Source: a virus
DNA length: 16,603 nt
Virus genome (UHGV): UHGV-0121259
Reading direction: 5' to 3' (one strand)
The translations under genes were made by a program, and so were the position numbers. Under the pieces are notes generated by a model. That model saw only the letters and a program-made list of their open reading frames with translations. It made no database searches and was not told the DNA's origin. Shown piece after piece: positions 1-16,603 of the stretch (positions are counted from its first letter, which is position 1; every line of letters begins with the position of its first letter).

Positions 1-49
1 GGACGCCCGCAGTGCGTGAACAGGCGTCCGATATTTTGAAGTGGGCAGA

Positions 50-369
50 TTACTTAACCCGCTTCCCCGTTTCGTCAATGACCTTCTCGCCATCCTCTTT
101 GGTAAACGCCCCTTTCTGACCTTCCGGTAGAATATCCAGCACCATTTCGGAGGGACGACAAAGACGCGTGCCGATCGGCGTCACTACAATCGGCCGATTA
201 ATCAGAATCGGATGCTGAAGCATAAAATCAATCAACTGCTCATCAGAAAATTTGTCTTCATCAAACCCAACTGCTCATAAGGTTCGACGTTCTTGCGCAG
301 CAATGTACGTACTGAAATGCCCATATCTGAAATCAGTTTGCTAAGTTCATCACGAGTCGGGGGAGTATC
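50..369 (-). pseudogene. arsC: arsC-like arsenate reductase remnant (5'-truncated and frameshifted)
   Basis: Two minus-strand frames together spell the middle and C-terminus of glutaredoxin-type ArsC (TPPTRDELSKLISDMGISVRTLLRKNVEPYEQLGL, then after a frame change DEDKFSDEQLIDFMLQHPILINRPIVVTPIGTRLCRPSE...GKRVK). The frame breaks near 262-272, consistent with a 1-nt deletion. The first ~35 codons, including the catalytic Cys region, are absent; homology starts right at the stop of the upstream 88-aa ORF. Confidence 0.75.
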
Positions 370-373
370 ACTA

Positions 374-640
374 CTAACGGTTGAACGTATGCTGTATCGC
401 TGCAAGCCGTGCAATATCTTTCCTTGTCTCTGCATCCCACGGTTCGTTATAAAACCACTTTGACGGGTGAGGGAGTTCAGATAAGGTGTTACTGAACAGT
501 ACCGATACTTCACCATCATCACTGTAGGTATCGAAGATTAACCGTCTACACTCCTTTGCAAACTCTTCACCACCGAGATACAGAAGTTGCCCCTGTTTCT
601 CTGTAACATACAAATCAAAATCTCTGTGTGACATCTTCAT
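374..640 (-). CDS. hypothetical small protein (88 aa)
   Basis: ATG-initiated ORF with non-repetitive, protein-like composition; its start overlaps the stop of a degraded upstream ORF (TAATG). No family recognised by eye. Confidence 0.4.
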   Translation of the reverse strand: MKMSHRDFDLYVTEKQGQLLYLGGEEFAKECRRLIFDTYSDDGEVSVLFSNTLSELPHPSKWFYNEPWDAETRKDIARLAAIQHTFNR

Positions 641-938
641 TATTGGTCAACAACCTTACAGTCATGCAGCATTACACGGTCAGGTGTAATCAGAGTTATT
701 TCATCACTTCTACGATAGCTTAACGTAACGCCACTATCCCCAGCTTTCGGCGCAAAGAACATCTCCAAACGTTTCACAGTGGCGCTCTCTTCAACGGTGT
801 AGTCATAGATTGCATACCGCTCCTGCTTGTCCGTGTATTTTGTACTTCTGACTAGCCATCCAAAACAATAGCGTGTTCACCCTGAGTTAACGACATACGC
901 ACTACAGTCTGACCATCACAGATTACGTCATAGTTCAT
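641..938 (-). pseudogene. frameshifted small gene remnant upstream of the 88-aa ORF
   Basis: Minus-strand translation gives MNYDVICDGQTVVRMSLTQGEHAIVLDG then stop; an adjacent frame continues WLVRSTKYTDKQERYAIYDYTVEESATVKRLEMFFAPKAGDSGVTLSYRRSDEITLITPDRVMLHDCKVVDQ and ends in a stop overlapping the next gene's ATG. Consistent with a single frameshift splitting a roughly 100-codon gene. Hand translation, so moderate to low confidence. Confidence 0.3.
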
Positions 939-989
939 TGCATATGCTGACAAGCTAAAGAGTGTGAGTGGAAACTAAGATGATATGCC

Positions 990-1406
990 TCATTTTATAA
1001 GCAACGCACAGTTATTCTGATTCCAGAGTGATGCAGCAGCTTCCTCATAGTTCGGTGACACGTTCTCTACATTCCTTGCCTTGTTGAAATCTTCAATCTT
1101 GTATTCGGAGTCCTGCACCTGGTAGTGGTAGACCTCTGCAAAATCTATAGCCATTTGCTCAGGGGTAGGATTGTACTCAGTAAATCCTCTCAGATTTGGA
1201 TAGTTCTTCTTAAACAACTGCACAGCTTTCTGTTCCATCGACTGAGCCTGGTCAGGAGTCACATCAGTTCTTAATCCCATATCCATTGTGTAGGCCATAC
1301 ACCGCATTACAGCATTCATCTCGTTCATATCTGCCTGAGAAACACCTTCAGCATTGACGCATGTAACCGTGAACAATCCCAGGATAAGTACCAGCACTTT
1401 CTTCAT
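990..1406 (-). CDS. exported protein with Sec-type signal peptide (138 aa)
   Basis: N-terminus MKKVLVLILGLFTVTCVNA-EG has a typical basic n-region, hydrophobic core and AxA-like cleavage site. Two Cys in the mature part could form a disulfide. No family assigned. Confidence 0.6.
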   Translation of the reverse strand: MKKVLVLILGLFTVTCVNAEGVSQADMNEMNAVMRCMAYTMDMGLRTDVTPDQAQSMEQKAVQLFKKNYPNLRGFTEYNPTPEQMAIDFAEVYHYQVQDSEYKIEDFNKARNVENVSPNYEEAAASLWNQNNCALLIK

Positions 1407-1551
1407 TATCTACCCACCTACAAAAAAACCGCCATAGTTGAAGGGGTAGATTATTACATTATTAGTAAGCGCACAGCGAGAGCCGTATTGACGGGGATGA
1501 GTCATTCAGTTGGCGGGGTTACGCTTCAGGGTAACAGTTCGCTGACCTGAT

Positions 1552-1565
1552 TGACTGGCCAGTCA
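1552..1565. promoter_or_regulatory. 14-bp perfect palindrome TGACTGGCCAGTCA
   Basis: Perfect dyad seen directly in the sequence, in AT-rich non-coding DNA upstream of the exported-protein gene; candidate dimeric regulator binding site. Confidence 0.3.
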
Positions 1566-2066
1566 GCTAGGGGTCAGTTTGGATATCGAAAATTATCGTA
1601 CGTAAAGGTTGATTTTTGTACTACTAGGCTGCGATAAGGGAGATAGACCACGTTGATAGGATGCTTTGAGCGAAGTGCAGACATTTTACTCATGGCAGTG
1701 GAGCGTTCCCGATTAATTAGACAGCACTTTCCAGTAACAAATTTAATTTGTATTTTTCGATCCCGGACAAGCAATACTTGTTGCAATTGATGATCGATGA
1801 ATTCTTTTTTGAGTGCCTGCAACGATTAACATCATTGGTAATCACGGAAAGTAAGATGTCTTAATACTTGCATATCTTTAACAGAAAATTCATGTAGTTG
1901 ATGACTATGATGGTCATCGCCTTTAATGAAATATCTACGTCCCAAAATCCCGTTCTAACCGCGAGTAAAATATCCGGCGTGGGGCATCAGGGAACAACGG
2001 CTGAAATTATCCCGCATTACGCTGGCGCCAGCTTAGCCCTGGCCACCAGCTTGAAGGGAGTTTCCG

Positions 2067-3008
2067 CTATTGATTTCTGAAGAACGCGGTCCTTGAAAGG
2101 GTCATTTGCGTCTGGCAGTCGACCATTTTCTTGACTTCAGCATCTGTTCCCTGCATTGAAACTTTACCGCACATAGCGTCCTTAGTTTTGATCCACTGGC
2201 GCTGAGAAGGCAGCAACTCTTTTTTCTTCTCTGGTGTTAATGTGCTCCAAGCGGTATTCAAATCAGAGTCAGCATTCGCAAAAGCCATTCGGGACTGATC
2301 AAGGTTGTCAGCTTTTTGTTGCTGAGGCTGCTGGTAGGATTGTTGTTGAATGGTTTGCTGAACCTGCTGCTCCGCCTCATATTTAGCCTGTTGCTGCGCC
2401 CTGAGTTGTGCCTGTTGTTCCGCTTCAATTTGACTTTGCTGGGCATCCTTAGCCTGCTGGATTTTCTGCTGCTCAACGATCGGGTTGATGATGGAAAGCG
2501 ATGTCAGTGCAGCGGCACCCACTGATATTGGGTTATCAGAAGAAGCTTTCACAAAAACGTTTTTCTGATCGTCGGTTGCCTGTGCGGTGTAGGAGATGCG
2601 TTTTGAAAAGGCGTTTGCGTTGTTATCCAAAGACAGGCTTTCCATTTGCTTGTCGAGATTACGGTTAAAGTTCTTTCTGTAAGCATCAGAAAGCTGTGCG
2701 TACTCGTTCGCAGGTAGGGTCATCGTCACGGTCCCTTCACAAGTTTTCATTGTGCTGCCCGTGTCACTTGAAGTTGTGGAGATTTCAGAGATGGTCAGTT
2801 TAATCTTGTCCAAAGCGCTTCGTTTGGTCTGATTAGTGACGTCAGGGTATTTGTCGACCTGTTCAGAGAGACCTTCATAAGCAGATTTTTTTATTAAATC
2901 CATGAGAGCTGACTGGGTCATTTCAGAGGAACAACCGATCACGTCTTTTTTGTTATCACAGCCTGTAATGGCAACGGCGAGTAAGAGTGCTGAGTATTTT
3001 AATCTCAT
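2067..3008 (-). CDS. lipoprotein with Gln-rich coiled-coil segment and C-terminal DUF1311 (LprI-like) domain
   Basis: Lipobox LLAVAITGC at the N-terminus; central Q/A/E-rich heptad-like stretch; C-terminus (ADSDLNTAWSTL...QRQWIKTKDAMCGK...VDCQTQMTLSRTAFF) fits the DUF1311 pattern of a conserved W, two Cys and an Arg. Confidence 0.7.
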   Translation of the reverse strand: MRLKYSALLLAVAITGCDNKKDVIGCSSEMTQSALMDLIKKSAYEGLSEQVDKYPDVTNQTKRSALDKIKLTISEISTTSSDTGSTMKTCEGTVTMTLPANEYAQLSDAYRKNFNRNLDKQMESLSLDNNANAFSKRISYTAQATDDQKNVFVKASSDNPISVGAAALTSLSIINPIVEQQKIQQAKDAQQSQIEAEQQAQLRAQQQAKYEAEQQVQQTIQQQSYQQPQQQKADNLDQSRMAFANADSDLNTAWSTLTPEKKKELLPSQRQWIKTKDAMCGKVSMQGTDAEVKKMVDCQTQMTLSRTAFFRNQ

Positions 3009-3459
3009 GAGTTCCCTTTAGAGTAAGGATTGGCTTTTAAGAGGCGGTCTGTAATCAGTCTGGAGGGCTATAGCAAACAGCGCTGAACACTGAACGCATC
3101 ACAAGCAAGAACCAAGGTGGTATCGGCAAAGACTGTGGAATCTTTAATTCAACTGATGAGAACGGTATGCACAAGGTTCAGTATCGATTATCCCGATGCA
3201 GGAAACCTGCAAGGCAGGTTTTGCTGCTGAACTTAAAAAAAGCTAGGTAAAGTCGGTACTGGCGTACCATTTATGACCTTTCACCTCCGCGGTGCACGAA
3301 AAAAATTCCGCAGAAATTCGTTCTTGGCTCATGTGTTCTGCTCCCTTCAAATTAATGCAGACCAAACTTAGCAACTTCCGCTCCTGGCACGAAGCCGACT
3401 ATACGCCTGAAGTATCATAGCTTAATTGGTTCTCTACACTCGCCACTGGGAGCGACTAC

Positions 3460-4104
3460 CTACGTTCTCTTCCCCCGTCCCATCTTCAGTACCTCATAAA
3501 AGGTCCCTCGCCCAAGCCCGTCTGACAACAATTCTCGCTCCTGAGCCAGCGTTTTCAGCTTTCGAAGTATCCGATCCGAAGCCGGCTTATCAGACGTCCC
3601 GTAACGCCCGTCAGTCTCCTCAACCAGAAGCTGAACCAGTAGCCAGCAGAGTCGGGCTGTATTCTCCCGCGCTTTGTCACGCTTATGCATCCCACGCTGG
3701 GAAGGTTGTGCTGAAGCAGTGAGATCCGGTAGCGCATCGTCGCCGAGTGTCTTCAGCCACTTGCGGCCACGGCTGTTGCGTGACAGTTTCATCACCGCCT
3801 TAAGGCTGCGGGCCTTAATTTCTGGCGGCGTGAGTTCGTCATCAATAAGCCGCCAGGCCAGGGCAAACATTTCATCGGCATAGAACATGCGTTTATTCGC
3901 CGGGGCGCTGATCATGCCCGTTGCTTTGATGGTGCGGCTGATGGCGTCGTGCAGGATACGGTAATTTTCCTGATGTTCTTCCGGCAGGGCGTTTGCAGGT
4001 TGGGAAGCATCGAGGCCGAGAAGCAGAAGGGCGAGATGCCGCGCTTCCAGCAGCGGCATATCACATTCCCGTTCAAACAGATTCTGACTAATGGGGCTGG
4101 TCAC
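3460..4104 (-). CDS. hypothetical protein (about 214 aa) coupled to integrase
   Basis: GTG start at 4104 lies 6 nt after a strong AAAGGAG Shine-Dalgarno embedded in the integrase 3' end; the integrase stop is at 4106-4108. No family recognised. Confidence 0.55.
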   Translation of the reverse strand: MTSPISQNLFERECDMPLLEARHLALLLLGLDASQPANALPEEHQENYRILHDAISRTIKATGMISAPANKRMFYADEMFALAWRLIDDELTPPEIKARSLKAVMKLSRNSRGRKWLKTLGDDALPDLTASAQPSQRGMHKRDKARENTARLCWLLVQLLVEETDGRYGTSDKPASDRILRKLKTLAQERELLSDGLGRGTFYEVLKMGRGKRT

Positions 4105-4105
4105 A

Positions 4106-5353
4106 TTATTCTCCTTTCACGATCTGCAGCGGTTCTTCTGCACCGAGCAGCGCCTGTCGTCTGGCAGCATCAACGTAGTTTCCCCACCACTGCATCAGCG
4201 GTCGCCTTTGTTCCAGGTAATCGCTGCGGTTATAGGCCGCTTCGATCTCGTCTTCTTTCTGGTGTGCCAGCGCAGATTCCAGAACTTCACGGGGGAAATG
4301 ACCTGCGCCTGCGGTCCTGGCGATGCTGCGCATGCCGTGGGCGACCAGTTCACCGCCAAACCCCATACGGATAAGCGCGGCGTTCGCGGTCTGTTGGTGC
4401 ATATGCTCCAGTGGTTTGCGAATGCTGGGGAAAACCCACGGACGATGGCGGCTGACTGGCTCCATGATCTGAAGAACGCGCAGTGCCTGTTTGCTGAGCG
4501 GCACCGTATGCGAACGGTTCATCTTCATAAAGGTGTCAGGGATACGCCATTCTGCTTTTTTCATATCGATGTCACACCAGCGGGCGCTAACGGCTTCGCC
4601 GGGGCGAACCCAGGTCAGTAGCTCCCATTCGATAAGGCAGCGGGTTTCCTTGCGGATAGAGGCGTTCTGTAGTGCCAGCATCAGCCTACCCAACTCGCTG
4701 GGGTGGAGTGCGGGCATGTTCTGCTTTTTCGGTTTCTTGAAGCGGGCGACCAGGTTGTCAGCCGGATTGAACTCGATGAGCTCTTCGGAGATGGCAAAGC
4801 GGAAGATTTCATTGAGCCGCGAGATAACCCGCCGCAGCGTTTCGAGGATGCCCTGTTCTTCCAGCGGTGTGAGGTGTTCCTTGAGTATTTTCGGGCGGAT
4901 CTCGGTGACGGGCGTATGGCCCAGAGAAGGAAAGACGTGCATCTCCAGCGAACGCCAGATATCTTTGACGTGATCTTCGCTGAGTCCACAGGTCCGTTTT
5001 TTCTCTTCCAGCCACTGTCCGGCTACCTTTTCCAGCGTGCATTCATTCTGGATGCGTTTTTCTTCGGCCATTTCAGCTAAGTGTTGACGAGGATCGATGC
5101 CCTGCCAGAGCAGTCGTCTGTACTGTGTGCGAGTTTCGCGGGCCATCGCCAGTGTAACGACCGGGTAAGGGCCAAGGCTGGTTTTGGTGCGCTTTTTGGT
5201 GACGGGATGATAATACTCGAAATGCCAGGCCTTCCTCCCTGAAGTCTTAACCAGCAAGTACAGGCCTTCACCGTCCCGTAGCTCATAATCTGTGCTACGG
5301 GGCTTCGCGCCAGCGATCTCCACATTTGTTAAGGGTTTCAGTTGCTTAGGCAT
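4106..5353 (-). CDS. int: P4-family tyrosine integrase (site-specific recombinase)
   Basis: 415 aa; N-terminal arm-binding region (KPLTNVEIAGAKP...DGEGLYLLV) and C-terminal catalytic region with conserved His/Arg/Tyr context (HGMRSIARTAG...ALAHQ...AYNRSDYLEQRR), resembling CP4-57 IntA-type integrases. Lies immediately downstream of the ssrA 3'-end att copy on the same strand. Confidence 0.9.
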   Translation of the reverse strand: MPKQLKPLTNVEIAGAKPRSTDYELRDGEGLYLLVKTSGRKAWHFEYYHPVTKKRTKTSLGPYPVVTLAMARETRTQYRRLLWQGIDPRQHLAEMAEEKRIQNECTLEKVAGQWLEEKKRTCGLSEDHVKDIWRSLEMHVFPSLGHTPVTEIRPKILKEHLTPLEEQGILETLRRVISRLNEIFRFAISEELIEFNPADNLVARFKKPKKQNMPALHPSELGRLMLALQNASIRKETRCLIEWELLTWVRPGEAVSARWCDIDMKKAEWRIPDTFMKMNRSHTVPLSKQALRVLQIMEPVSRHRPWVFPSIRKPLEHMHQQTANAALIRMGFGGELVAHGMRSIARTAGAGHFPREVLESALAHQKEDEIEAAYNRSDYLEQRRPLMQWWGNYVDAARRQALLGAEEPLQIVKGE

Positions 5354-5519: not shown

Positions 5520-5564
5520 TGGTGGAGCTGGCGGGAGTTGAACCCGCGTCCGAAATTCCTACAT
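5520..5564 (-). repeat. ssrA: 45-bp fragment of the ssrA (tmRNA) 3' end; attachment-site core shared by the two elements
   Basis: Minus strand reads ATGTAGGAATTTCGGACGCGGGTTCAACTCCCGCCAGCTCCACCA, matching the tmRNA 3' acceptor/T-arm and CCA tail as I recall the E. coli sequence. DNA 5' of it (5565 onward) is AT-rich and unrelated to tmRNA, so this is a partial copy, not a gene. Confidence 0.85.
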
Positions 5565-5649
5565 ACCATTTTTACCATAATGAAAACAGTTGTTTGTATT
5601 TAAAAACAGTATGTTAGTGTTGTTTTGTGTTAGTCCGTTTTATCCGTTT

Positions 5650-6717
5650 TTAACTCTCTGCCGCCACTTTGTCGCCATTAAAGGTAAGCAGAGGATCCGT
5701 TTTACCACTATAAGTGGAGATAACTTGAAAGATTGGTACATCATACTTTGCTATCAAATCTGCTATCATGAAAATCTTGCCAGAAGATGCATCGTCTTTG
5801 TATGAAAAAAAATCATCTGTAATATCAAGAATGTCTATCGTAAATTTAAAGTAAGTCGCTATGGTATTTCCAAGCTCACTACTAGACATGAAGTTTGTGA
5901 AAATTTGATATCCTTCTGTAGATAAGGAGGCATGTTCATTTAAACTGACAGTGGTCAAACACAACATCCGGTTTAATTTTAATAGTTTAAATTCTATTGA
6001 ATGTAGTGCTTGCATTTGACGCACTAGAACGTCATTGATATCTAACCCTTTATTCGATGAAGCAAAGCTTTCCATGGATTTAAGAATTTCGAGCCAATAT
6101 TTATTGATTTTTTTTATATATTCTTTATTTGCTTTTGCTGGCCTACCTTTTTCTGGGTTGCTTTCGTCAAATATATATCTATATAAATGTATAGGGTATG
6201 AAACCTTGCATGTAATCTCATGTATTTCAAGGTGGCGTTTGCGATGAATTATTTGGCCAGGTAAATTAGTAAAGTAATCAGTGACAAATTTCAAATGGCT
6301 ATAATGACTATCTGAAAGATTTTTTTGTTTAGCCTCCTGAATCTGTCGATTTGTTTGAACTGTCCGATGAATGTTAGCTACTACGGCAACAAATGGTATG
6401 GATAAAGAAAGTAACGCGATGGGAAGTTTGCTAATAGCAATGAAATTATTAAATCCATCACTGTTAAATTGCGGACTATGTCCAAGCCAGGAAAATAAAC
6501 CAAAATAAAATGATGATAGTAATGGTATCCTTATTGATTGTTTGAATAAGTATTGTTTTGTTAACGGTCTTTCATCCATTTCAAAAGCTTTTTTATTTAT
6601 ACAGAGTGTTAACTCAATAAACACATATAACACATACAAAGATATTAGTGCATATGACAGCCATGAATGTTGTTGAATAAAATCGTTAATAAACACTTTT
6701 TGAGTTTCTCCATCCAA
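5650..6717 (-). CDS. AT-rich membrane-anchored protein of unknown function (about 355 aa), cargo gene between att core and prophage integrase
   Basis: Long ORF in a markedly AT-rich segment (by eye) unlike flanking phage DNA. Three hydrophobic helices in the first ~120 residues, then a ~235-aa K/N/I/Y-rich soluble domain. The start codon is uncertain (TTG at 6717 or GTG at 6696); both overlap the integrase 3' end. Confidence 0.6.
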   Translation of the reverse strand: MDGETQKVFINDFIQQHSWLSYALISLYVLYVFIELTLCINKKAFEMDERPLTKQYLFKQSIRIPLLSSFYFGLFSWLGHSPQFNSDGFNNFIAISKLPIALLSLSIPFVAVVANIHRTVQTNRQIQEAKQKNLSDSHYSHLKFVTDYFTNLPGQIIHRKRHLEIHEITCKVSYPIHLYRYIFDESNPEKGRPAKANKEYIKKINKYWLEILKSMESFASSNKGLDINDVLVRQMQALHSIEFKLLKLNRMLCLTTVSLNEHASLSTEGYQIFTNFMSSSELGNTIATYFKFTIDILDITDDFFSYKDDASSGKIFMIADLIAKYDVPIFQVISTYSGKTDPLLTFNGDKVAAES

Positions 6718-7726
6718 GATTAGCTAGTGGATTCTTTGTTACTGCATCTTCTAAATGGTCGGGGGCAAAGTGGGCGTAAACCATCGTCATTTTTATATCG
6801 GCATGACCCAAAATATCTCGCAGTACCAATATATTTCCGCCGTTCATCATAAAGTGGCTGGCGAATGTATGGCGCAGCACGTGGGTGCATTGCCCCTCCG
6901 GCAGATCAATACTGGCCCGCTTTACTGCCCGCTCAAAGGCTTTTCTGCATGGCGTGAATAACTTCCCTCTGTTTTTGGGGAGTTCTTCATACAGATCCTG
7001 AGAAATAGGCACGGTACGGTTTTTCTTGCCCTTGGTCTTGGTATAGGTGATCCGGTATTTCGATAACTGATGGCCCTGCAGGTTTTCGGCTTCACTCCAG
7101 CGCGCGCCGGTGGCCAGGCATATTTTTGCAATCATCAGCAGGCTGGGGCTTTGAGATTCCGCGCAGGCATCCAGTAGGCGTTTAATTTCTTCCGGAGCCA
7201 AGAACGCCAGCTCACCTTCTGCGATTTTAAATGTTGGTAGCCCGGCGAGAGGGTTTGGTGCTGACCAGTGGCCTAGCTTTTTCAGGGTGCCAAAAACCGA
7301 TGATAGGTTACGTTGTTCGAGGTTTACCGTTCGGGGCTTAACTGGTGACATAAACGCGCCATCTTCATTTCGCATTTCACCTTTTAGCCGCGCTTCCCGA
7401 TATTTTGTGAAATCGGCTGCCGTTAACTCTGAAGCAACCGGATCGCCCAGACCATTACAAATAATGTTGAGTTTCGCCATTAGACGTTTCGGATCCGCAA
7501 GCGTCTGACCGTAGAGTGAGTGCCATTGCTCAATTACTTCTGACAAGCGCCGCCGATCTTCCTTCTCACCAAGCCATGGCTTTTTGTTCACTTCATCCAT
7601 GGTGAAGTTTTCGAATGCTACGGCCTCACCTTTCGTCGCAAATTGCTTGCGCACGCGTTTGCCGTCGCGTCCGTTTGGGTAGCATTCACACAACCATTTT
7701 CCGTTCGGCTGCTTTCTGATGGTCAT
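6686..7726 (-). CDS. int: P2/186-family tyrosine integrase
   Basis: 346 aa; N-terminal arm-binding type fold (KQPNGKWLCECYPNGRDGKRVRKQFATKGEA) and C-terminal catalytic box HVLRHTFASHFMMNGGNILVLRDILGHADIKMTMVYAHF. ATG at 7724-7726, three nucleotides downstream of the repressor stop, as in the P2 C-int operon. Confidence 0.9.
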   Translation of the reverse strand: MTIRKQPNGKWLCECYPNGRDGKRVRKQFATKGEAVAFENFTMDEVNKKPWLGEKEDRRRLSEVIEQWHSLYGQTLADPKRLMAKLNIICNGLGDPVASELTAADFTKYREARLKGEMRNEDGAFMSPVKPRTVNLEQRNLSSVFGTLKKLGHWSAPNPLAGLPTFKIAEGELAFLAPEEIKRLLDACAESQSPSLLMIAKICLATGARWSEAENLQGHQLSKYRITYTKTKGKKNRTVPISQDLYEELPKNRGKLFTPCRKAFERAVKRASIDLPEGQCTHVLRHTFASHFMMNGGNILVLRDILGHADIKMTMVYAHFAPDHLEDAVTKNPLANLGWRNSKSVY

Positions 7727-7729
7727 AAG

Positions 7730-8362
7730 TTAGAGGCTCTTGATTACTTTTATAGCACGGCCTACAACCTCGATATCATCAAGGCTGCACTCAAAAGATG
7801 ACTCACCCTGCTGGACAATTAAGCGATTGCCGGGGATGCGTGCAAGTTTAGCTATCGTTTTTATTCCATCAATATCAACGAGCCATACGCCATTTACTGG
7901 TGGAGTACCGCTACGGTCAACGAGGTAAGAGCCATCGTCTGTATGGATGAGCCACGGATTAGTCATGTTGTGGGGGATTAGACTTTTATCCAATATCACC
8001 TTGCCTTGGTCCACTAAAGCGCCACCATCTAATGTGGCCTTATCAATTTCAGGCGCTACAACCTCGGATAACGGTTTGATGTGGGGCTGGTTCACAAAAC
8101 CAAAACTATTTTCCTGCGCATTATTATCATTTTTATCACCTTGCCCAGTCGTTAACCAAAGCAGCGAAACCCCAGTTTCAAGAGCGCACTGTATAACCCA
8201 TTCTGCAGGGAAGCTATCTCTTAAGTATCTGTTTGCCATAGTGCTTTTTGAAACGGAAAGATGGTCACACAACTGCTGTCGAGAGTTGAAGTTATAAGCC
8301 TTAATCAGCCTATTGATAGCTTCACGCCCTCCGCTCTCATTACCTACCTTGATAGATCTCAT
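7730..8362 (-). CDS. phage CI-type immunity repressor (186-like size class)
   Basis: About 210 aa directly upstream of and co-oriented with int, divergent from the early operon; N-terminal region has an HTH-like segment (QQLCDHLSVSKSTMANRYL). No GDSM-type S24 peptidase motif seen, so probably not autocleavable. First ATG at 8360-8362. Confidence 0.65.
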   Translation of the reverse strand: MRSIKVGNESGGREAINRLIKAYNFNSRQQLCDHLSVSKSTMANRYLRDSFPAEWVIQCALETGVSLLWLTTGQGDKNDNNAQENSFGFVNQPHIKPLSEVVAPEIDKATLDGGALVDQGKVILDKSLIPHNMTNPWLIHTDDGSYLVDRSGTPPVNGVWLVDIDGIKTIAKLARIPGNRLIVQQGESSFECSLDDIEVVGRAIKVIKSL

Positions 8363-8374
8363 AAGCAAAACCCT

Positions 8375-8402
8375 TGACGTATATAAAATGTGATCTTAGT
8401 AT
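8375..8402 (+). promoter_or_regulatory. candidate rightward early promoter in the CI/cox switch region
   Basis: TTGACG, 16-nt spacer, TAGTAT in the 110-bp divergent intergenic region; overlaps the repressor translation start region. Confidence 0.3.
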
Positions 8403-8478
8403 TCATTCAAGGTTTGAAAAACAAACCTAAACCCTATAAAACGAGATAAATCGAAACCAAACTAAGAGATACTGCACT

Positions 8479-8721
8479 ATGAGCACTGATATTTCAATTC
8501 GTGTACCTAAAGAGATGGCTACGCCTGCAGAGTTCGCTGAATGGGAAGGTATCTCCCGTGGTTCTGTTTACCAGAAAATTCACCATGGTCAGCTTGCTAA
8601 GTACATGGTCAAGAAAGAAAAAAACAAAGGTCGCGTAAGTCTGCGTTACCTGATGTACAAAACCGACCAGGTTCGAGAATCCCTCGGTCATTCCAACTTT
8701 CGCGTCATTGTTGGTCAGTAA
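8479..8721 (+). CDS. Cox/Apl-like small DNA-binding protein (excisionase and switch regulator position)
   Basis: 80 aa, first gene of the operon divergent from CI; winged-helix-like segment ATPAEFAEWEGISRGSVYQKIHHGQL; position equals P2 cox / 186 apl. Confidence 0.5.
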   Translation: MSTDISIRVPKEMATPAEFAEWEGISRGSVYQKIHHGQLAKYMVKKEKNKGRVSLRYLMYKTDQVRESLGHSNFRVIVGQ

Positions 8722-8753
8722 GTTCAATTATGAGAACTTTTTGAGAGAGGCAC

Positions 8754-9263
8754 ATGTTTGATTATAAGATTTCCAAACATCCACACTTTGACGAAGCCTG
8801 CCGGGCTTTCGCGCTGCGTCACAACATGGCGAAGTTGGCAGAACGCGCAGGAATGAATGTCCAGACGCTGCGCAATAAGCTGAACCCGGAGCAACCGCAT
8901 CAACTTACGCCGCCGGAGATCTGGCTGCTGACTGATATCACAGAAGACTCAACGCTGGTTGACGGTTTTCTGGCTCAAATCCATTGCCTGCCGTGCGTGC
9001 CATTGAATGAAGTGGCAAAAGAGAACCTGCCACATTACGTCATGAGTGCAACTGCGGAGATTGGGCGTGTAGCTGCAGGCGCAGTATCCGGTGATGTGAA
9101 AACCAGTGCAGGCCGCCGCGATGTGATCAATAGCATCAACTCAGTTACGCGCCTTATGGCACTCACTGCAGTTTCATTGCATGCGCGTTTGCAGGCGAAT
9201 CCGGCGATGGCAAGCGCGGTAGATACCGTGACGGGCCTGGGCGCTTCGTTCGGTCTGATCTGA
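8754..9263 (+). CDS. CII-like regulatory protein (186 CII position and size)
   Basis: 169 aa with strong GAGAGAGG ribosome-binding site; second gene of the early operon; helix-turn-helix-like N-terminal region. Assignment is by synteny and size, not verified by alignment. Confidence 0.45.
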   Translation: MFDYKISKHPHFDEACRAFALRHNMAKLAERAGMNVQTLRNKLNPEQPHQLTPPEIWLLTDITEDSTLVDGFLAQIHCLPCVPLNEVAKENLPHYVMSATAEIGRVAAGAVSGDVKTSAGRRDVINSINSVTRLMALTAVSLHARLQANPAMASAVDTVTGLGASFGLI

Positions 9264-9270
9264 GGTGGCT

Positions 9271-9471
9271 ATGCTGACTAAAGAACCATCTTTTGCATCA
9301 CTGCTCGTTAAGCAAAGTCCTGCAATGCACTGCGGTCATGGCTGGATTATGGGGAAGGATGGCAAGCGCTGGCATCCATGCCGCTCTCAGGATGCGCTGC
9401 TGGACGAACTGTCTACTAAAAAGCAGGGGAAACCATGGCTATTGAAGGCGATGCTGCGACTGTTCCGCTAA
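9271..9471 (+). CDS. hypothetical small protein (66 aa)
   Basis: ATG at 9271 preceded by GAGGTGG; Cys/His-containing (HCGHGW...WHPC), possibly metal-binding; early operon. Confidence 0.4.
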   Translation: MLTKEPSFASLLVKQSPAMHCGHGWIMGKDGKRWHPCRSQDALLDELSTKKQGKPWLLKAMLRLFR

Positions 9472-9776
9472 GCGCTGGCCTCCGCCTTAATGGGTTAAAC
9501 CACATCGCGGAATTAAGGGCGAAAGTGTTTGGCTTAAATATTGATTCAGAACTGGAGCGCTTTATTAGCGATATGCGGGACCAACGGGATATTAACCATG
9601 AGCAGAATAAACGCGCACTAGCCGCAATATTCTTTATGGCAAAGATTCCGGCGGAACGTCATAGCGTCAATGTTAGTGAGCTGACGACTGACGAAAAGCG
9701 GAATCTGATTAAAACAATGAACCATTTCCGTACAGTGGTGAGTTTATTTCCAAATCGGCTAGCCATGCCGAATTAA
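9435..9776 (+). CDS. hypothetical protein (113 aa)
   Basis: ATG with AGGGGA ribosome-binding site; overlaps the previous ORF by 37 nt in another frame; early operon. Confidence 0.4.
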   Translation: MAIEGDAATVPLSAGLRLNGLNHIAELRAKVFGLNIDSELERFISDMRDQRDINHEQNKRALAAIFFMAKIPAERHSVNVSELTTDEKRNLIKTMNHFRTVVSLFPNRLAMPN

Positions 9777-9843
9777 TCCACAACCGAAATTAAAGGCGTA
9801 AACCCGCCGGGCATCTTATTGCCCAAATTCAGGAGAAACAACA

Positions 9844-10077
9844 ATGCGAAATATTGAAACCCGAATCACCAAAACAGGACCAGATGATGCTGGCCTTAAC
9901 CAGATGCTGACTGATGCGCGCATGGAAGAACGCCGTGCACGTGCTGCGGCAATGGTAGCCCGTCTTGATAGCCTGGCTTGCCATATCACGTCACGCCAGC
10001 TTAATCACGTTGAAGCGGCGGAGCTGCTGCGTATTGCGGCTGAAAACATTCAGAACGAAGCGCAGGAGATCCACTGA
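9844..10077 (+). CDS. hypothetical protein (77 aa)
   Basis: ATG with AGGAGA ribosome-binding site; stop overlaps the next start (TGATG). Confidence 0.45.
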   Translation: MRNIETRITKTGPDDAGLNQMLTDARMEERRARAAAMVARLDSLACHITSRQLNHVEAAELLRIAAENIQNEAQEIH

Positions 10078-10304
10078 TGGCTGATTCAATGGACCTTGTA
10101 CAGCAGCGCGTTGAAGAAGAACGTCAGCGCCACATCCACACCGCCCGCAACAGAACGCCGGGCGTTTCCCGTGTGCTTTGCATTGATTGTGATGCACCGA
10201 TCCCGCCAGAACGTCGCCGCGCTATTCCGGGCGTGCAGTGTTGCGTCACCTGTCAGGAAATTGCGGAGCTGAAAGGCAAACATTACGTAGGGGGTGCTGT
10301 ATGA
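10077..10304 (+). CDS. TraR/DksA-family C4 zinc-finger protein
   Basis: 75 aa with CIDCDAPIPPERRRAIPGVQCCVTCQ, the four-Cys zinc-finger spacing of phage TraR-like proteins; stop overlaps the dam start (ATGA). Confidence 0.7.
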   Translation: MADSMDLVQQRVEEERQRHIHTARNRTPGVSRVLCIDCDAPIPPERRRAIPGVQCCVTCQEIAELKGKHYVGGAV

Positions 10305-11158
10305 GCACTATCCTGAAATGGGCGGGTAATAAAACCTCCATCATGGCAGAACTGAAAAAACACCTTCCAGCAGGCCCGCGACTGGTTGAACCTTTCGCGG
10401 GTTCATGCGCTGTGATGATGGAGACAGACTATCCTCATTATCTTGTCGCGGATATTAATCCAGACCTGATTAATCTCTATCAGGTGATTAAAAATGATGT
10501 TGAATACTTCATCAAAGAGGGCAGATATCTTTTTGAAGCCCGTAATGATCCAGAGGCATATCATAAGACGAGACAGGAGTTTAACTTGCGCCATGGTGGT
10601 GCAATTGAACGCGCATTGTATTTCTTATATTTAAATCGCCATGGTTATCGCGGACTGTGTCGCTATAACTTGGACGGTTATTTTAATGTTCCTTACGGAA
10701 ATTATAAAAAGCCGTACTTCCCTGAAAACGAAATATGCGCATTTGCAGAAAAAGCAAAACGCGCAACGTTTATCTGCGCCAGCTATGACGAGACACTGGC
10801 ACTGCTGCAAACGGGTGATGTTGTCTATTGCGATCCACCATATGACGGCACGTTTAACGGATATCACACAGCTGGTTTTACAGAGGATGATCAGTACCAT
10901 CTGGCGTCTATTCTTGAGCGCCGGTCATTAGACGGTCATACGGTTATCGTGTCCAACAGCGATACGTCTCTGACCCGTTCGCTTTATCGTGATTTTACCC
11001 GCCATCGTATAACCGCTAAGCGCAGCATGGGCGTGGCTGCCGGTGATAGTAAAACTGCAGTAGAAATCATCGCCACAAAATCAGCATGCTGGTTTGGTGT
11101 TGATTTGGCGTCTGGTCCTGATATCTCGGTGGAAGCTGAGGTGCGGGCGTGGCAGTGA
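10301..11158 (+). CDS. dam: DNA adenine methyltransferase (Dam-like, N6-adenine)
   Basis: 285 aa; SAM-binding motif [11 protein letters not shown] and catalytic DPPY (VYCDPPYDG); GGGGTG ribosome-binding site; 3' end overlaps the replication gene start by 10 nt. Confidence 0.85.
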
Positions 11159-13557
11159 GTAAATTCACATTACATCATGCACAAACCACCGGCGGCTCGA
11201 ATGAGGCCGCGGTGGCTTTTCCATGGAATGCCCCAAAAAAAGCGGTTAACCCGTATCTGGACCCGGCGGAAGTAGCGCCGGAGTCTGCGCTTTCAAACCT
11301 CATCACTCTGTACGCAGCGGATAACGAGCAGGGGCATCTGCGCCGTGAGGCGCTGAGTGATAAGGTTTGGGAACGTTATTTCTTCAATGAATCCCGTGAT
11401 CCTGTCCAGCGTGAAATAGAGCAGGATCAGCTAATTAGCCATGCCAAAATGGCCCGCGAACAGCAGCGCGTTAATCCCGATTTGGTGATTATTGCCGATG
11501 TAAGCGCTATGCCTGCTCATATCAGCAAGCCTCTGCTGGAGCGGATTAAATACTTCCATAGCCTAGGTAGGGCTAAAGCTTATTCCCGCTATCTGCGCGA
11601 AACAATCAGGCCTTGTCTTGAGCGGCTGGAGCGCGTGCGTGACAGCCAGGTGTCTGCGTCTTTCCTGTTCATGGCGAGCCAAGACGGGCTGGAGGGGCTA
11701 CTGGTACTGCCTGAAATGAGTCAGGATCAGGTCAAACGTTTGTCCACGCTGGTTGCGGCACATATGAGCATGTGCCTTGATGCTGCCAGCGGTGATCTGT
11801 TTGTTGCTGAAGATGTTAAGCCAGAAGAAATCCGCCAGGTATGGGAAAGGGTTGCTGCAGAAGCCATGCGCCTTGAGGTCATCCCGCCTGCCTTTGAGAA
11901 GTTGCGCCGCAAAAAGCGCCGCCGCAAGCCGGTGCCTTATGAACTGATCCCACCGTCGCTGGCGCGCATGCTGTGCGCGGACTGGTGGTATCGCAAATTG
12001 TGGCAGATGCGCTGTGAGTGGCGGGAGGAGCAACTGCGTGCCGTCTGCCTAGTCAACAAGAAAGCGTCCCCGTATGTCAGCTATGAAGCCGTGATCCACA
12101 AACGCGAGCAGCGCCGTAAATCGCTGGAGTTCTTCCGCTCGCATGAGCTGGTCAACGAAGACGGCGACACGCTGGACATGGAAGACGTGGTGAACGCCAG
12201 CAACAGCAACCCGGCACACCGCCGTAATGAAATGATGGCCTGTGTTAAGGGACTGGAGCTGATCGCGGAAATGCGCGGAGACTGCGCGGTGTTTTATACC
12301 ATCACCTGCCCGTCACGCTTCCACGCAACCCTCAACAACGGCAGACCTAATCCGAAGTGGACCAGTGCCACTGTCCGGCAGAGCAGTGACTACCTGGTTG
12401 ATACGTTCGCCGCTTTCCGCAAGGCCATGCACAAGGCCGGGCTGCGCTGGTATGGCGTTCGCGTTGCAGAGCCGCACCATGACGGCACCGTGCACTGGCA
12501 TCTTCTGTGCTTCATGCGCAAAAAAGACCGCCGTTCCATCACCGCACTGCTGCGTAAGTTTGCCATCCGTGAAGACCGCGAGGAGCTGGGCACCAATACC
12601 GGGCCGCGCTTCAAGTCCGAGCTAATCAATCCGCGCAAGGGAACGCCGACCAGCTATATCGCCAAATACATCAGTAAGAACATCGACGGGCGTGGGCTGG
12701 CTAAAGAAATCAGCAAAGAAACCGGAAGATCACTGCGTGACAGCGCCGAGCATGTCAGCGCCTGGGCGTCACTGCACCGTGTTCAGCAATTTCGTTTCTT
12801 TGGTATTCCTGGGCGTCAGGCATACCGCGAGCTGCGCTTGCTTGCTGGTCAGGCGGCGAGAGTGCAGGGCGAACGCAAAGCGGGTGCGCCGGTACTGGAT
12901 AACCCGCGTCTGGATGCGGTACTGGCAGCTGCAGATGCGGGTTGCTTTGCCACTTATATCATGAAGCAGGGCGGTGTACTGGTTCCCCGCAAACATCACC
13001 TTGTCCGCACGGCTTATGAGCTTAACGACGAACCGAGCGCCTACGGCGATCACGGTATCCGTATCTATGGCATCTGGTCCCCGATTGTTGAGGGCAAGAT
13101 TTGCACGCACGCGATGAAGTGGAAAAAGATTCGTAAGGCCGTTGACGTTCAGGAGGCGGCAGCCGACCAGGGCGCTTGCGCCCCTTGGACTCGTGGCAAT
13201 AACTGTCCCCCTGTTGAAAATCTGAACAAATCAGGGGGTGATTTACCTGATATTAAAACCATGGGTGAGAAGGAGCTGCAGGAATATCTCCACAACATGG
13301 GCCAGAAGGAACGGCGGGAGCTGACAGCCAGGTTAAGACTGGTAAAACCTAAGCGGAAAAAAGCCTATAAACAGAATATTTCGGAGCAGCAGCGTCTGCA
13401 GCTTGAGGCAGAACTGACAGCCAGAGGATTTGAAGGTAGTGCATCGGAGATTGATTTGCTCCTGCGTGGCGGCAGCATTCCATCAGGTGCCGGGCTGCGT
13501 ATTTTTTACCGTAACCAGCGGCTGCAGGAAGATGACAAATGGCGTCAGTGGTACTAA
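11149..13557 (+). CDS. replication initiation endonuclease (P2 gpA-type rolling-circle initiator)
   Basis: 802 aa with GTG start; contains the twin-tyrosine motif SYIAKYISK typical of phiX174/P2 A-type nickases; position and size match gene A of P2/186. Confidence 0.85.
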
Positions 13558-13626
13558 GACTGCCGTTTAACAATTAGTGCTTTATTGACTGGTGTCAGTG
13601 TATCCAATTAACTGACAAAAAAGAGT

Positions 13627-13669
13627 TTTACATTTTCAAATCCCTAATATACTGTACACATAAACAGTG
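13627..13669 (+). promoter_or_regulatory. LexA (SOS) box overlapping a sigma70-type promoter
   Basis: TACTGTACACATAAACAGTG at 13650-13669 fits CTGT-N8-ACAG of the LexA consensus; TTTACA (13627-13632) sits 17 nt upstream of TACTGT, so the box overlaps the -10. Confidence 0.55.
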
Positions 13670-13715
13670 GGTATATATACAGTTGTTGTGTATCCGTGTA
13701 ATGATAGGAGGGAAG

Positions 13716-13904
13716 ATGCAGGACTATCTTTTGGAGTCATTAAAGCTCCAGCGTATTGATTTTTTTATCAAGCTTGTAGCGGCTAGTGAGTGCAGCGATG
13801 AAGAAAAGCGGCTGGCTATCCAGTGGGTGTCCGAACTGACCGACGAGCTGATGGCGAAAATCCGCAGCCATGAATACTGCCGGTCAATGGACGTAACCAG
13901 TTAA
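13716..13904 (+). CDS. small SOS-operon protein (62 aa), candidate Tum-like antirepressor
   Basis: ATG at 13716 is 4 nt after a perfect GGAGGG ribosome-binding site; first gene downstream of the LexA box and immediately upstream of dinI-like, mirroring the 186 tum-orf97 operon layout. Function inferred from context only. Confidence 0.4.
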   Translation: MQDYLLESLKLQRIDFFIKLVAASECSDEEKRLAIQWVSELTDELMAKIRSHEYCRSMDVTS

Positions 13905-13915
13905 AGGGAATCTGT

Positions 13916-14149
13916 ATGCGCATTGAAATAATGATCGATAAAGAGCAGAAGATTAGCCAGTCTACACTGGACGCCCTTGAATCCGAGCTTTACCGTAATT
14001 TGCGCCCTCTGTATCCCAAAACAGCAATTCGTATCCGCAAGGGCAGCGCCAATGGCGTTGAACTGAGCGGGTTAAAACTGGATGAAGACAAACAGCGAGT
14101 GATGGAAATAATGCAGCAGGTCTGGGAGGACGACAGTTGGTTACATTAG
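13916..14149 (+). CDS. dinI: DinI-family protein
   Basis: 77 aa; MRIEIMIDK...DALESEL...DEDKQRVMEIMQQVWEDDSW aligns by eye with E. coli DinI (MRIEVTIAK...DALAGEL...KEDKQRISEILQETWESADDW). Confidence 0.85.
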   Translation: MRIEIMIDKEQKISQSTLDALESELYRNLRPLYPKTAIRIRKGSANGVELSGLKLDEDKQRVMEIMQQVWEDDSWLH

Positions 14150-14282
14150 CGAACGTTGCGGACGATAAAACTGGTTTTTACCGTCCGCAAGGTTGAACAA
14201 CGAGCCACGCGAGGCGTTAGTGCTGTTGTGCATGTCTATGCCGCATGAAATCGCATGATCGTTTGAGGATCGTTTTTGCTGA

Positions 14283-14308
14283 GGCCCGCCAGAACTGGCG
14301 GGCTTTTG
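14283..14308 (+). terminator. rho-independent terminator of the SOS operon
   Basis: GGCCCGCCAG-AA-CTGGCGGGC followed by TTTTGCTT. Confidence 0.6.
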
Positions 14309-14353
14309 CTTATGTCATGCAGGTGCATGAAAACCGCTACACAAAGCGGGCAG

Positions 14354-14372
14354 GCGTGGCGGGGATACGAGC
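14354..14372. other. candidate cos (cohesive end) site of the prophage
   Basis: GGCGTGGCGGGGATACGAG; the first 13 nt match my recollection of the 186 cohesive end (GGCGTGGCGGGGAAAGCAT). It lies in a 450-bp non-coding GC-rich stretch between the late-early region and the portal gene, where cos sits in P2/186. Recollection-based, unverified. Confidence 0.3.
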
Positions 14373-14598
14373 GCGCGCCGCGGGGTGAAATAGTAAAATT
14401 CACTTAGCCTCAGGCCCGCTGATGGCTTCCTTCTGAAAGGGAGGGGGCGTTTTTGTGCAATCTTGTTTGAAGGGATTTAAATAAATGTTGAATGTGTTCC
14501 GGAGTTGGCTGTAGATTTAGTGTTCTGTCACAAGTTGCAGTGATAGGTAGCAAACCTTTAAAAGGTTCTGCTATTGTTTCATTAAAGATTTATAGTCT

Positions 14599-15198
14599 TT
14601 GTCCGAAAATGACATTAAAGTAGTCGCCTTTAATGTCGTAAGCATGAAGGACAGAGAATTGAACTTAGAGCAGATTGCCAGTCAAAGTATAAGTAACCTT
14701 CAGTTTCTTCTCGATACTTTGAAGATGCCGTTGGCTGTTGGTCCAATCAGTGATGAAGACTATGTGATCCTGACCACAGGATACGCTCAGCTAGAATGGG
14801 ATTATGGTTTTTCTCGGTTTGGCAATCGAAGTGATAAGTTTGAATTTTGTTTGAAGCTCCTTGCGGGGCCACTTAGGCATATCCCTTCTGGCGCAGCTAT
14901 GTGCACCTTTGATGAGGACGCTGGAGTCATAGAGATCCATTTTGTGGAATCTTTTGTGAAAGATGATGACGTAGAGCATCCTCTTTACGGCAACATGTTC
15001 ATGGTTACATTGTGGGCGGTATATCTTTTTGGTAGCGCGGTTGGGTGTCAAGAGATTCGCATCCCTGAAGCCCTGAATCAAAAAGTTGCTGATCACTATA
15101 AAAAATTTGGTTTTAAAGGTGATATAAGCTTGCTTTCGGCACCTTTTGCTACAATAACTGATGTAGTAAGACGCTACATTACTTCTAAGAAACAGTAG
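14599..15198 (+). CDS. hypothetical protein (184-199 aa), cargo gene; possible divergent GNAT-like fold
   Basis: ORF in a lower-GC segment (by eye) between cos-like site and portal gene. Start uncertain (TTG 14599 or ATG 14644, neither with a strong ribosome-binding site). C-terminal EALNQKVADHYKKFGF resembles acetyltransferase motif B (e.g. AtaT EALNEKAHTFYKSLGF), but the CoA-binding Q/R-x-x-G-x-G/A motif is not evident. Confidence 0.55.
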   Translation: MSENDIKVVAFNVVSMKDRELNLEQIASQSISNLQFLLDTLKMPLAVGPISDEDYVILTTGYAQLEWDYGFSRFGNRSDKFEFCLKLLAGPLRHIPSGAAMCTFDEDAGVIEIHFVESFVKDDDVEHPLYGNMFMVTLWAVYLFGSAVGCQEIRIPEALNQKVADHYKKFGFKGDISLLSAPFATITDVVRRYITSKKQ

Positions 15199-15277
15199 AT
15201 AAATTTTTGCGCAGTGCTACAATGCTGCGCCAAACATCCACCACCGGATGATGAGGCTTGACCTCTAAGAGGAAATC

Positions 15278-15457
15278 ATGACTATGACGCATAGTGACAA
15301 GAAAGCTCAGAAGCATTACTCAGTATCTGATGTTTTCAGCCGTATGGGCGTCGCGATGGAAGAACTACTTCAAGCGGCCCCACATATGATGCAGGACTGC
15401 AAATTTGAAGGAAATGAGCTTCATGGTAAGCTCAAAGAAAAGCAGAAAGCTGCTTAA
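15278..15457 (+). CDS. hypothetical small protein (59 aa)
   Basis: ATG at 15278 preceded by AGAGGA; below the 60-aa cutoff of the supplied ORF track; followed by a strong terminator. Sequence MTMTHSDKKAQKHYSVSDVFSRMGVAMEELLQAAPHMMQDCKFEGNELHGKLKEKQKAA. Confidence 0.4.
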   Translation: MTMTHSDKKAQKHYSVSDVFSRMGVAMEELLQAAPHMMQDCKFEGNELHGKLKEKQKAA

Positions 15458-15481
15458 TTCCATGAAATGCGTTTTGCATGA

Positions 15482-15505
15482 AGCCCGGTAATACCGGGCT
15501 TTTTT
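15482..15505 (+). terminator. rho-independent terminator after the cargo pair
   Basis: AGCCCGG-TAATA-CCGGGCT followed by TTTTT; just before the convergent portal gene stop at 15513. Confidence 0.6.
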
Positions 15506-15512
15506 ATGCCAG

Positions 15513-16553: not shown

Positions 16554-16603
16554 CAAAAAATCTCCACAATATTGCTGGTATTGGCGGACTCGCCCTGCAG
16601 CGG
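16553..16603 (-). CDS. 3' end of upstream late gene (position of terminase ATPase gpP), partial at window edge
   Basis: Open frame to the window edge ending ...NIVEIF-stop, with the stop overlapping the portal ATG. Too short to identify by sequence. Confidence 0.3.
   Translation of the reverse strand, partial: PLQGESANTSNIVEIF

Follow-up and report, generated by a model that had tools for sequence, protein, structure and literature searches.

The window analysed here is a stretch of 16,603 nucleotides from the virus genome UHGV-0121259. Near its start, the minus strand carries two small, overlapping reading frames, the upstream one broken, and the question is what kind of module they belong to. 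The original prediction considered a toxin-antitoxin or regulator-effector pair whose upstream member might have been lost, with decay of the whole module as the alternative. The locus at 374-1406 (minus strand) is the worn tail of a three-gene, translationally coupled island operon. According to our overall account, which we consider probable, this decayed operon was accessory cargo of a serine-recombinase prophage or island, and its 88-aa product may be a recombinase-linked orphan. The finding is largely one of ordinary gene decay in a genomic-island remnant, known in kind and new in its protein members. Three very rare, unannotated protein families, travelling together behind an adhesin gene, are thereby defined.

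A three-gene operon and its relatives

The operon comprises the following genes.

990-1406, minus strand: intact 138-aa gene, first of the trio, encoding a predicted secreted protein; its stop codon TGA and the pseudogene's ATG overlap as ATGA
640-993, minus strand: 118-codon pseudogene of a predicted secreted beta-barrel protein, defined by DNA alignment with the intact homologues P0001, P0002, P0004, P0008 and P0009
374-640, minus strand: intact 88-aa gene, last of the operon, defined as an ORF with the homologues P0005-P0007 and the remote relatives P0026, P0027 and P0029

The order is thus a 138-aa secreted protein, an ATGA overlap, a 118-aa secreted protein, a TAATG overlap and an 88-aa cytoplasmic protein. 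The overlapping stop and start that first drew attention were recovered, as TAA at 642-640 of the upstream frame overlaps ATG at 640-638 of the 88-aa ORF. The arrangement proved to be a trio rather than a pair, in which the broken gene is the middle member and its start is overlapped by the 138-aa gene. The broken gene had also been drawn too short, at about 100 codons with a start at 938; it has 118 codons, beginning with a signal peptide at ATG 993-991 (MRHII...) and ending at TAA 642-640. In the intact homologues, which have 118-120 residues, the leader MRHIIITTALSLFSLSA(H/Y)A precedes MNYDV; therefore, the ATG at 938 corresponds to the first residue of the mature protein. One intact homologue is the E. 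coli protein HAV9602741.1. The 88-aa ORF is open over 374-640 as originally described, but it stops two to three codons before the end of its homologues, at the junction with an arsC fragment. Homologues of both small ORFs were found in a collection of 5.8 billion proteins at E = 1e-30 to 1e-53, showing that both are real genes.

The 138-aa protein has a Sec-type leader at its N-terminus. Citrobacter portucalensis has an annotated protein identical to it, and proteins from Klebsiella aerogenes and Enterobacter hormaechei fall in its 90% cluster as well. Purifying selection was evident in all three families, with dN/dS values of 0.11-0.23 for the 138-aa gene, 0.09-0.25 among intact genes of the 118-aa family and 0.05-0.16 for the 88-aa gene. 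The families are sparsely distributed. The 118-aa family forms seven clusters among the 5.8 billion proteins and was absent from a scan of IMG/VR viral contigs. For the 88-aa protein, an HMM search of 1.84 billion representative proteins returned only three further true relatives (87, 137 and 142 aa), giving a family of four representative clusters. Scans located this family at one locus in IMG/VR and three in metagenome contigs, and a peptide-pattern scan of 185,579 GTDB species-representative genomes yielded no relative. At the DNA level, positions 330-1000 had no match in complete E. coli genomes or phage records, and only a 40-bp edge belonging to arsC matched plasmids.

Comparison with intact orthologous arrangements had been proposed at the outset, their absence from other genomes being taken as an argument against the module. 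Intact overlapping trios of 137/138, 118/119 and 88/91 aa were present in L013, L011/L012 and L016/L017 (L numbers denote loci). Each of them lies directly downstream of a gene whose 551- or 681-aa product carries a YadA membrane anchor (an adhesin). The elements that carry the trio occupy a site between kdgR (IclR family) and yebQ/htpX, the gene order being that of E. coli K-12 and the Pfam labels having been computed. In L016, the intact trio is followed by convergent prophage tail genes, and in L013 by a truncated serine recombinase gene. L003 matches L013 except for a clean 1086-bp stretch (L013 3418-4503) that it lacks, in which lie the final 19 nt of the 118-aa gene, the complete 88-aa gene and the recombinase fragment. 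L013 and L003 would accordingly represent successive deletion remnants. As a separate observation, the L013 element (adhesin gene and trio) sits inside yebQ, with a 59-aa N-terminal fragment upstream and the remaining MFS gene downstream.

From these contexts, we infer that the trio was accessory cargo of the "moron" type, located at the end of a prophage or island with a serine recombinase, a prophage origin being suggested by one full context (L016) and one remnant (L013). As with other lysogenic-conversion cargo of prophages, the intact trio of L016 lies between the attachment-site-proximal adhesin gene and the prophage tail genes; as with grounded prophages, the trio of L013 lies in a remnant that keeps only the element ends and a truncated recombinase. 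The trio differs from prophage morons in that IMG/VR contains no match for the 118-aa family and a single one for the 88-aa family, and that a collection of phage records contains none. The copy in the window has lost its adhesin gene, is fused to a 5'-truncated, frameshifted arsC and travels as a 1.7-kb block in an ssrA-linked island array.

Possible roles of the encoded proteins

The 88-aa protein has no leader and is predicted to be cytoplasmic, mildly acidic and helical. Its AF2 model was all-helical but of low confidence (pLDDT 55), too poor for a fold search. A variable region at residues ~63-75 was considered as a frameshifted segment and rejected, the sequence there being simply divergent. 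More can be learned from the gene neighbourhoods, in which a large serine recombinase gene is the most widely conserved neighbour of the family, often coupled to it by ATGA. The loci in which a family member and a serine recombinase gene occur together are as follows.

L001, 7060-8751 and 6791-7063: 563-aa large serine recombinase and 90-aa relative, whose gene overlaps the stop of the recombinase gene by ATGA (4 bp)
L030, 5180-6429 (likewise L031 and L080): 142-aa relative, 39% identical to the window protein, with an ATGA overlap with the stop of a recombinase fragment
L078, 821-4355: recombinase gene, unannotated gene and 88-family gene, in that order, with 4-bp overlaps
L079, 3087-6330: the same order, with 4-bp overlaps

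The recombinase C-terminal fragments in L030/L031/L080 are 38-43% identical to the recombinase of L001 (an E. coli locus), and the intervening unannotated genes in L078 and L079 encode 375-409 aa, the overlaps there being read from ORF coordinates. The E. coli element with the 563-aa recombinase and the 90-aa protein belongs to GCA_016666165.1 (contig DADCNX010000005.1). This synteny spans 39-76% protein identity. The recombinase link thus extends across the deepest divergence in the 88-aa family, whereas coupling to the 118-aa gene is found in a single shallow clade. In the three trio contexts, the 88-aa gene is coupled to the 118-aa gene rather than to a recombinase gene. An adjacent recombinase is absent in the window, in L019, where the 88-family gene lies against a piece of yebQ at the end of an island, and in L020-L023, where it stands alone in a defence island.

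Since the recombinase is the most widely conserved neighbour, a recombinase accessory or directionality-type factor is the most likely role of the 88-aa protein, and a tentative one, to which we assign clearly less than an even chance on these gene neighbourhoods. The gene in the window would then be an orphan without its recombinase. Accessory or directionality factors of serine recombinases are exemplified by Anabaena xisF-xisH-xisI, SPbeta SprB and TP901-1 Orf7. Like the genes of directionality factors, the 88-family genes are small and, in four or five independent contexts, share an operon with a large serine recombinase gene, directly behind it and often overlapping by 4 bp. They differ in lacking homology to any known directionality factor, including a Pfam match to XisH or XisI, and in that the window copy and its closest relatives have no recombinase and are instead coupled to the 118-aa gene. 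Nothing specific came from a search of the literature for accessory genes of recombinases. If the candidate role holds, the family would supply one clade of large serine recombinases with a partner protein, these recombinases being enzymes that serve as genome-engineering tools and whose directionality factors are hard to find.

The orientation of the 88-aa gene also differs between close relatives. In L001, the 90-aa relative is convergent to a 120-aa gene rather than behind it, and comparison of L001 6363-7066 with L013 3433-3707 showed the 88-aa gene to be inverted, with a breakpoint exactly at the start codon. It is coupled to the 118-aa gene by TAATG in L013 and to the recombinase gene by ATGA in L001, both junctions being precise overlaps.

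The 118-aa protein points in another direction. Every intact member of its family has a predicted cleavable N-terminal Sec-type leader with an A-x-A cleavage motif, and its AF2 model (pLDDT 87.6) shows a disordered leader followed by a barrel. The protein is thus confidently modelled as a secreted small beta-barrel with a weak PliC/MliC likeness, and it was possibly a periplasmic enzyme inhibitor of that type. The PliC/MliC inhibitors (Pfam MliC, PF09864; Salmonella PliC 3oe3, Brucella PliC 4mir and PhiA 7dpy) are among the closest known systems. They differ from the 118-aa family in that the latter gave no PF09864 match even at E <= 10, and the conserved inhibitory loop motif was not seen in 118-family alignments. 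A Foldseek comparison of the model with the PDB returned no significant match.

These features sustain a live, partial alternative, in which the trio would be an orphan cluster for immunity or inhibition. Its secreted 138- and 118-aa proteins would neutralise periplasm-acting enzymes (such as lysozymes, or T6SS/CDI muramidases), and the 88-aa protein, instead of serving a recombinase, would be unrelated cargo, e.g., a cytoplasmic immunity protein or an anti-defence factor. The PliC-like barrel matches of the 118-aa model and the Sec leaders on both upstream proteins are in line with it, as are an LprI-domain protein encoded by the same island, one 88-family gene directly upstream of an Hcp gene and the 88-family genes that stand alone in defence islands. 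The structural scores are weak, however, sequence matches to MliC/PliC are lacking and no cognate effector is encoded nearby. The cluster would also leave unexplained why the 88-aa family is recurrently ATGA-coupled to serine recombinase genes across 39-76% identity. We therefore regard it as unlikely, though worth keeping beside the account of recombinase-linked cargo.

A type II toxin-antitoxin or regulator-effector pair that has lost its upstream antitoxin or regulator is far less probable still. The likeness is real in outline: as in such modules, two small genes with overlapping stop and start codons lie on a mobile island, and the upstream one is inactivated. The signal peptide and the beta-barrel model, however, indicate that the protein is exported and is neither an antitoxin nor a regulator that binds DNA, whereas both components of such a module are expected to be cytoplasmic. 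No homology to a known toxin, antitoxin or defence family emerged, as the 138-, 118- and 88-aa proteins had no match in Pfam, NCBIfam, PHROGs or PADLOC (E <= 0.1) and PDB sequence searches with single proteins and profiles gave nothing below E = 0.5. Nor are the genes obligate partners: the 118-aa gene is found without a coupled 88-aa gene in L001, where the two are convergent, and in L003, which has no 88-aa gene, and 88-family genes occur alone or behind recombinase genes. Furthermore, the unit has three genes rather than two, the first of them also secreted, and the 88-aa gene is intact in at least 12 assemblies despite the loss of its supposed antidote. The toxin-antitoxin part of the original prediction was thus not borne out, and the locus should not carry a toxin-antitoxin annotation.

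Decay of the middle gene

The upstream gene had been described as split by a single frameshift. Its frame is indeed broken at about 840-855, leaving a 45-codon ORF (640-777) and a 33-codon ORF (852-953) in different frames of the minus strand, but a DNA alignment of the window copy with the five intact homologues revealed three lesions, not one.

966-971, minus strand: lesion 1, loss of 2 nt from the part that encodes the signal peptide, at about 968/969 with an uncertainty of a few nucleotides
852-854, minus strand: lesion 2, a nonsense codon, TAG, in frame at the position of AAG (Lys) in the closest relatives, from DNA alignment
838-843, minus strand: lesion 3, a 1-nt deletion at about 840/841, reading GAAGTACA-AAATAC here and GAAGTGTACAAATAC in an intact homologue

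Lesion 1 leads to a premature TAG at 957-955. Both deletions are common to all 12 near-identical copies (L005-L010 and L024-L029). The codon at 852-854 separates these copies into two sets: it is TAG in the window and in L024-L029, and AAG in the six loci L005-L010, which are ~98.5% identical and keep both frameshifts. Since the two frameshifts are shared by copies without the TAG, the decay was stepwise, with the frameshifts first and the nonsense codon later. By this alignment, the TAG is the most recent lesion, specific to the lineage of the window. The dN/dS between the frame-corrected pseudogene and the intact gene of L013 was 0.15, the same as between intact genes of the family, which indicates that inactivation was recent relative to the divergence of the family.

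It has next to no probability that the frameshifts are sequencing or assembly errors and that the gene is intact in the cell. One indel does fall in a short A-run, but the gene has three separate lesions, and the one at 852-854 is a substitution that created TAG. Moreover, six other assemblies (L024-L029) show the full set with 100% identity, and six further ones show both frameshifts, the assemblies coming from different samples and sources; reproducibility across independent assemblies rules out sequencing error. Intact genes of 118-120 aa exist in L001, L011, L013, L014 and L016, and the window copy carries disabling lesions, as expected of a unitary pseudogene. Judged from these alignments, the middle gene is a true pseudogene, in agreement with the alternative originally offered, that the module is decaying. 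It is just as hard to credit that the split gene still functions through programmed frameshifting or as separate peptides, its fragments being open for 33 and 45 codons, because two frameshifts of different sign and a stop-codon readthrough would be needed, the signal peptide is cut off from the mature domain, and the intact homologues are encoded without any frameshift.

The loss of the middle gene may have consequences for its downstream neighbour. No Shine-Dalgarno sequence lies within normal distance of the 88-aa start, and a promoter and terminator scan of window positions 1-2100 found nothing. Because the gene lacks a good Shine-Dalgarno sequence of its own and translation through the pseudogene is lost, its expression is probably reduced, presumably at the level of translation through the broken coupling. 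The outer genes themselves have been spared. About four lesions were counted in ~680 bp across the two pseudogenes of the locus, and none in the 684 bp of the 138-aa and 88-aa genes. At an equal rate, the chance of observing zero lesions would be a few per cent (a rough estimate), which argues for continued selection on both genes.

The 1.7-kb block, its palindromic boundaries and the ssrA array

The second pseudogene is the arsC fragment, and the whole locus forms part of a block with sharp boundaries.

1-1684, no strand assigned: 1.7-kb block consisting of the arsC fragment, the 88-aa gene, the 118-codon pseudogene, the 138-aa gene and a leader; ~99% identical in Citrobacter and K. aerogenes assemblies
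53-369, minus strand: arsC 3' fragment (codons ~36-141) with a frameshift near 250-270, located by tblastn with E. coli ArsC and by DNA matches to plasmid arsC
1663-1681, minus strand: left boundary of the block, a type-A palindromic site, TCTGCACTTCGCTCAAAGC

The arsC fragment represents the 3' two-thirds of the gene (labelled "ArsC (weak)" in relatives) and directly adjoins the stop codon of the 88-aa gene; this rearrangement scar is the same in every copy of the block. The block occurs in three different flanking contexts, its right boundary lying ~19 bp beyond window position 1. Each end lies within a type-A palindrome with arms that are chimeric between contexts. In a Mixta genome, an intact arsC is followed by the same type-A palindrome and then by a type-B palindrome; the arsC tail with its palindrome is therefore a native end of an ars operon.

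The two palindromes together form a repeat of ~66-75 bp, consisting of type A (GTCCGCTyy-TCGCTC-nnAGCGGAC), a spacer of ~18-25 nt and type B (GTCCGCTTC-GTGCCA-GAAGCGGAC). Copies were located at the following positions.

Window: 1663-1681 (minus strand) and 3377-3395 (plus strand)
L005: 2678-2696, 4303-4366, 6960-6978 and 8638-8656
L006: 3284-3347, 4516-4579, 6960-6978 and 8638-8656
L033-L077: further copies

In Klebsiella and Citrobacter island arrays, the repeat sits between defence-gene cassettes (AbiH, YcaO, McrBC, kinase/FRG and SMEK_N). The exact 24-nt type-B sequence was found in 45 stretches of GTDB representative genomes, covering many Enterobacterales genera, several Alphaproteobacteria MAGs and a few other taxa, e.g., Haliea, Idiomarina, Chloroflexota and Thermoguttaceae. 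Near-copies with up to two mismatches are often clustered within one 8-kb locus, roughly 0.8-2.4 kb apart, and loci of other Enterobacterales and of Alphaproteobacteria MAGs contain clusters of near-identical copies spaced by roughly 1-2.4 kb; the alphaproteobacterial copies have GGGTCA instead of TCGCTC at the type-A centre. The arms show sequence conservation instead of covariation, which points to putative protein-binding half-sites.

Several known kinds of element were considered for this repeat and rejected. A high-copy REP element does not agree with an exact 24-mer in only 45 stretches of representative genomes, and neither ssrA nor a tRNA gene adjoins the repeat. An integron attC site would have a GTTRRRY core, which the GTCCGC...GCGGAC palindromes at the block boundaries lack, and the scanned window ORFs included no IntI-type integrase. 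The type-A arms often mismatch, making the repeat more like conserved inverted half-sites than a strict hairpin. Rfam gave no match at gathering or E-value thresholds, and a literature search found no paper containing the sequence. A conserved two-palindrome repeat at cassette boundaries deserves a study of its own. The sequence data would also accommodate a bolder combination, in which the 88-aa protein founds a new accessory or directionality-factor family for a proteobacterial clade of large serine recombinases and the 1.7-kb block is a cassette exchanged by site-specific recombination at the two-palindrome site; we consider it doubtful that both hold together.

Beyond the block, the window contains a P4-type integrase gene (4106-5353) and, at 5520-5551 (within 5520-5565, minus strand), a 3' fragment of ssrA (tmRNA), GGACGCGGGTTCAACTCCCGCCAGCTCCACCA, between the P4-type integrase island and a 186/P2-like prophage. 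ARAGORN detected no complete tRNA or tmRNA gene in the window, although this fragment is present. The fragment is an attachment-site repeat that marks tandem integration at ssrA. Taken together, the P4-type integrase, the ssrA 3' fragment and the prophage indicate that the locus is a tandem island array at ssrA.

The P4-type island carries further cargo. The C-terminal part of a 313-aa protein (2067-3008, minus strand) is an LprI (lysozyme inhibitor) domain, and the protein gave a match to phrog_5094 with E = 2e-171; the island thus has another putative periplasmic inhibitor besides the decayed barrel gene. A 214-aa protein (3460-4104, minus strand) matches phrog_30524.

The 186/P2-like prophage looks intact over 7730-16556, as far as the window reaches, and the following genes were recognised.

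6686-7726: prophage integrase
10238-11158: Dam-type methyltransferase
11149-13557: replication protein A
13916-14149: DinI-like protein
15513-16556: portal protein

It also encodes a CI repressor, CII (CP76), DUF5347 and DUF2732 proteins and a TraR-type zinc finger protein. At the attachment-site-proximal end, a 355-aa ORF with a TTG start (5650-6717, minus strand) overlaps the end of the integrase gene. It has no Pfam family, matches phrog_17460 at E = 1e-118 and may be prophage-end cargo.
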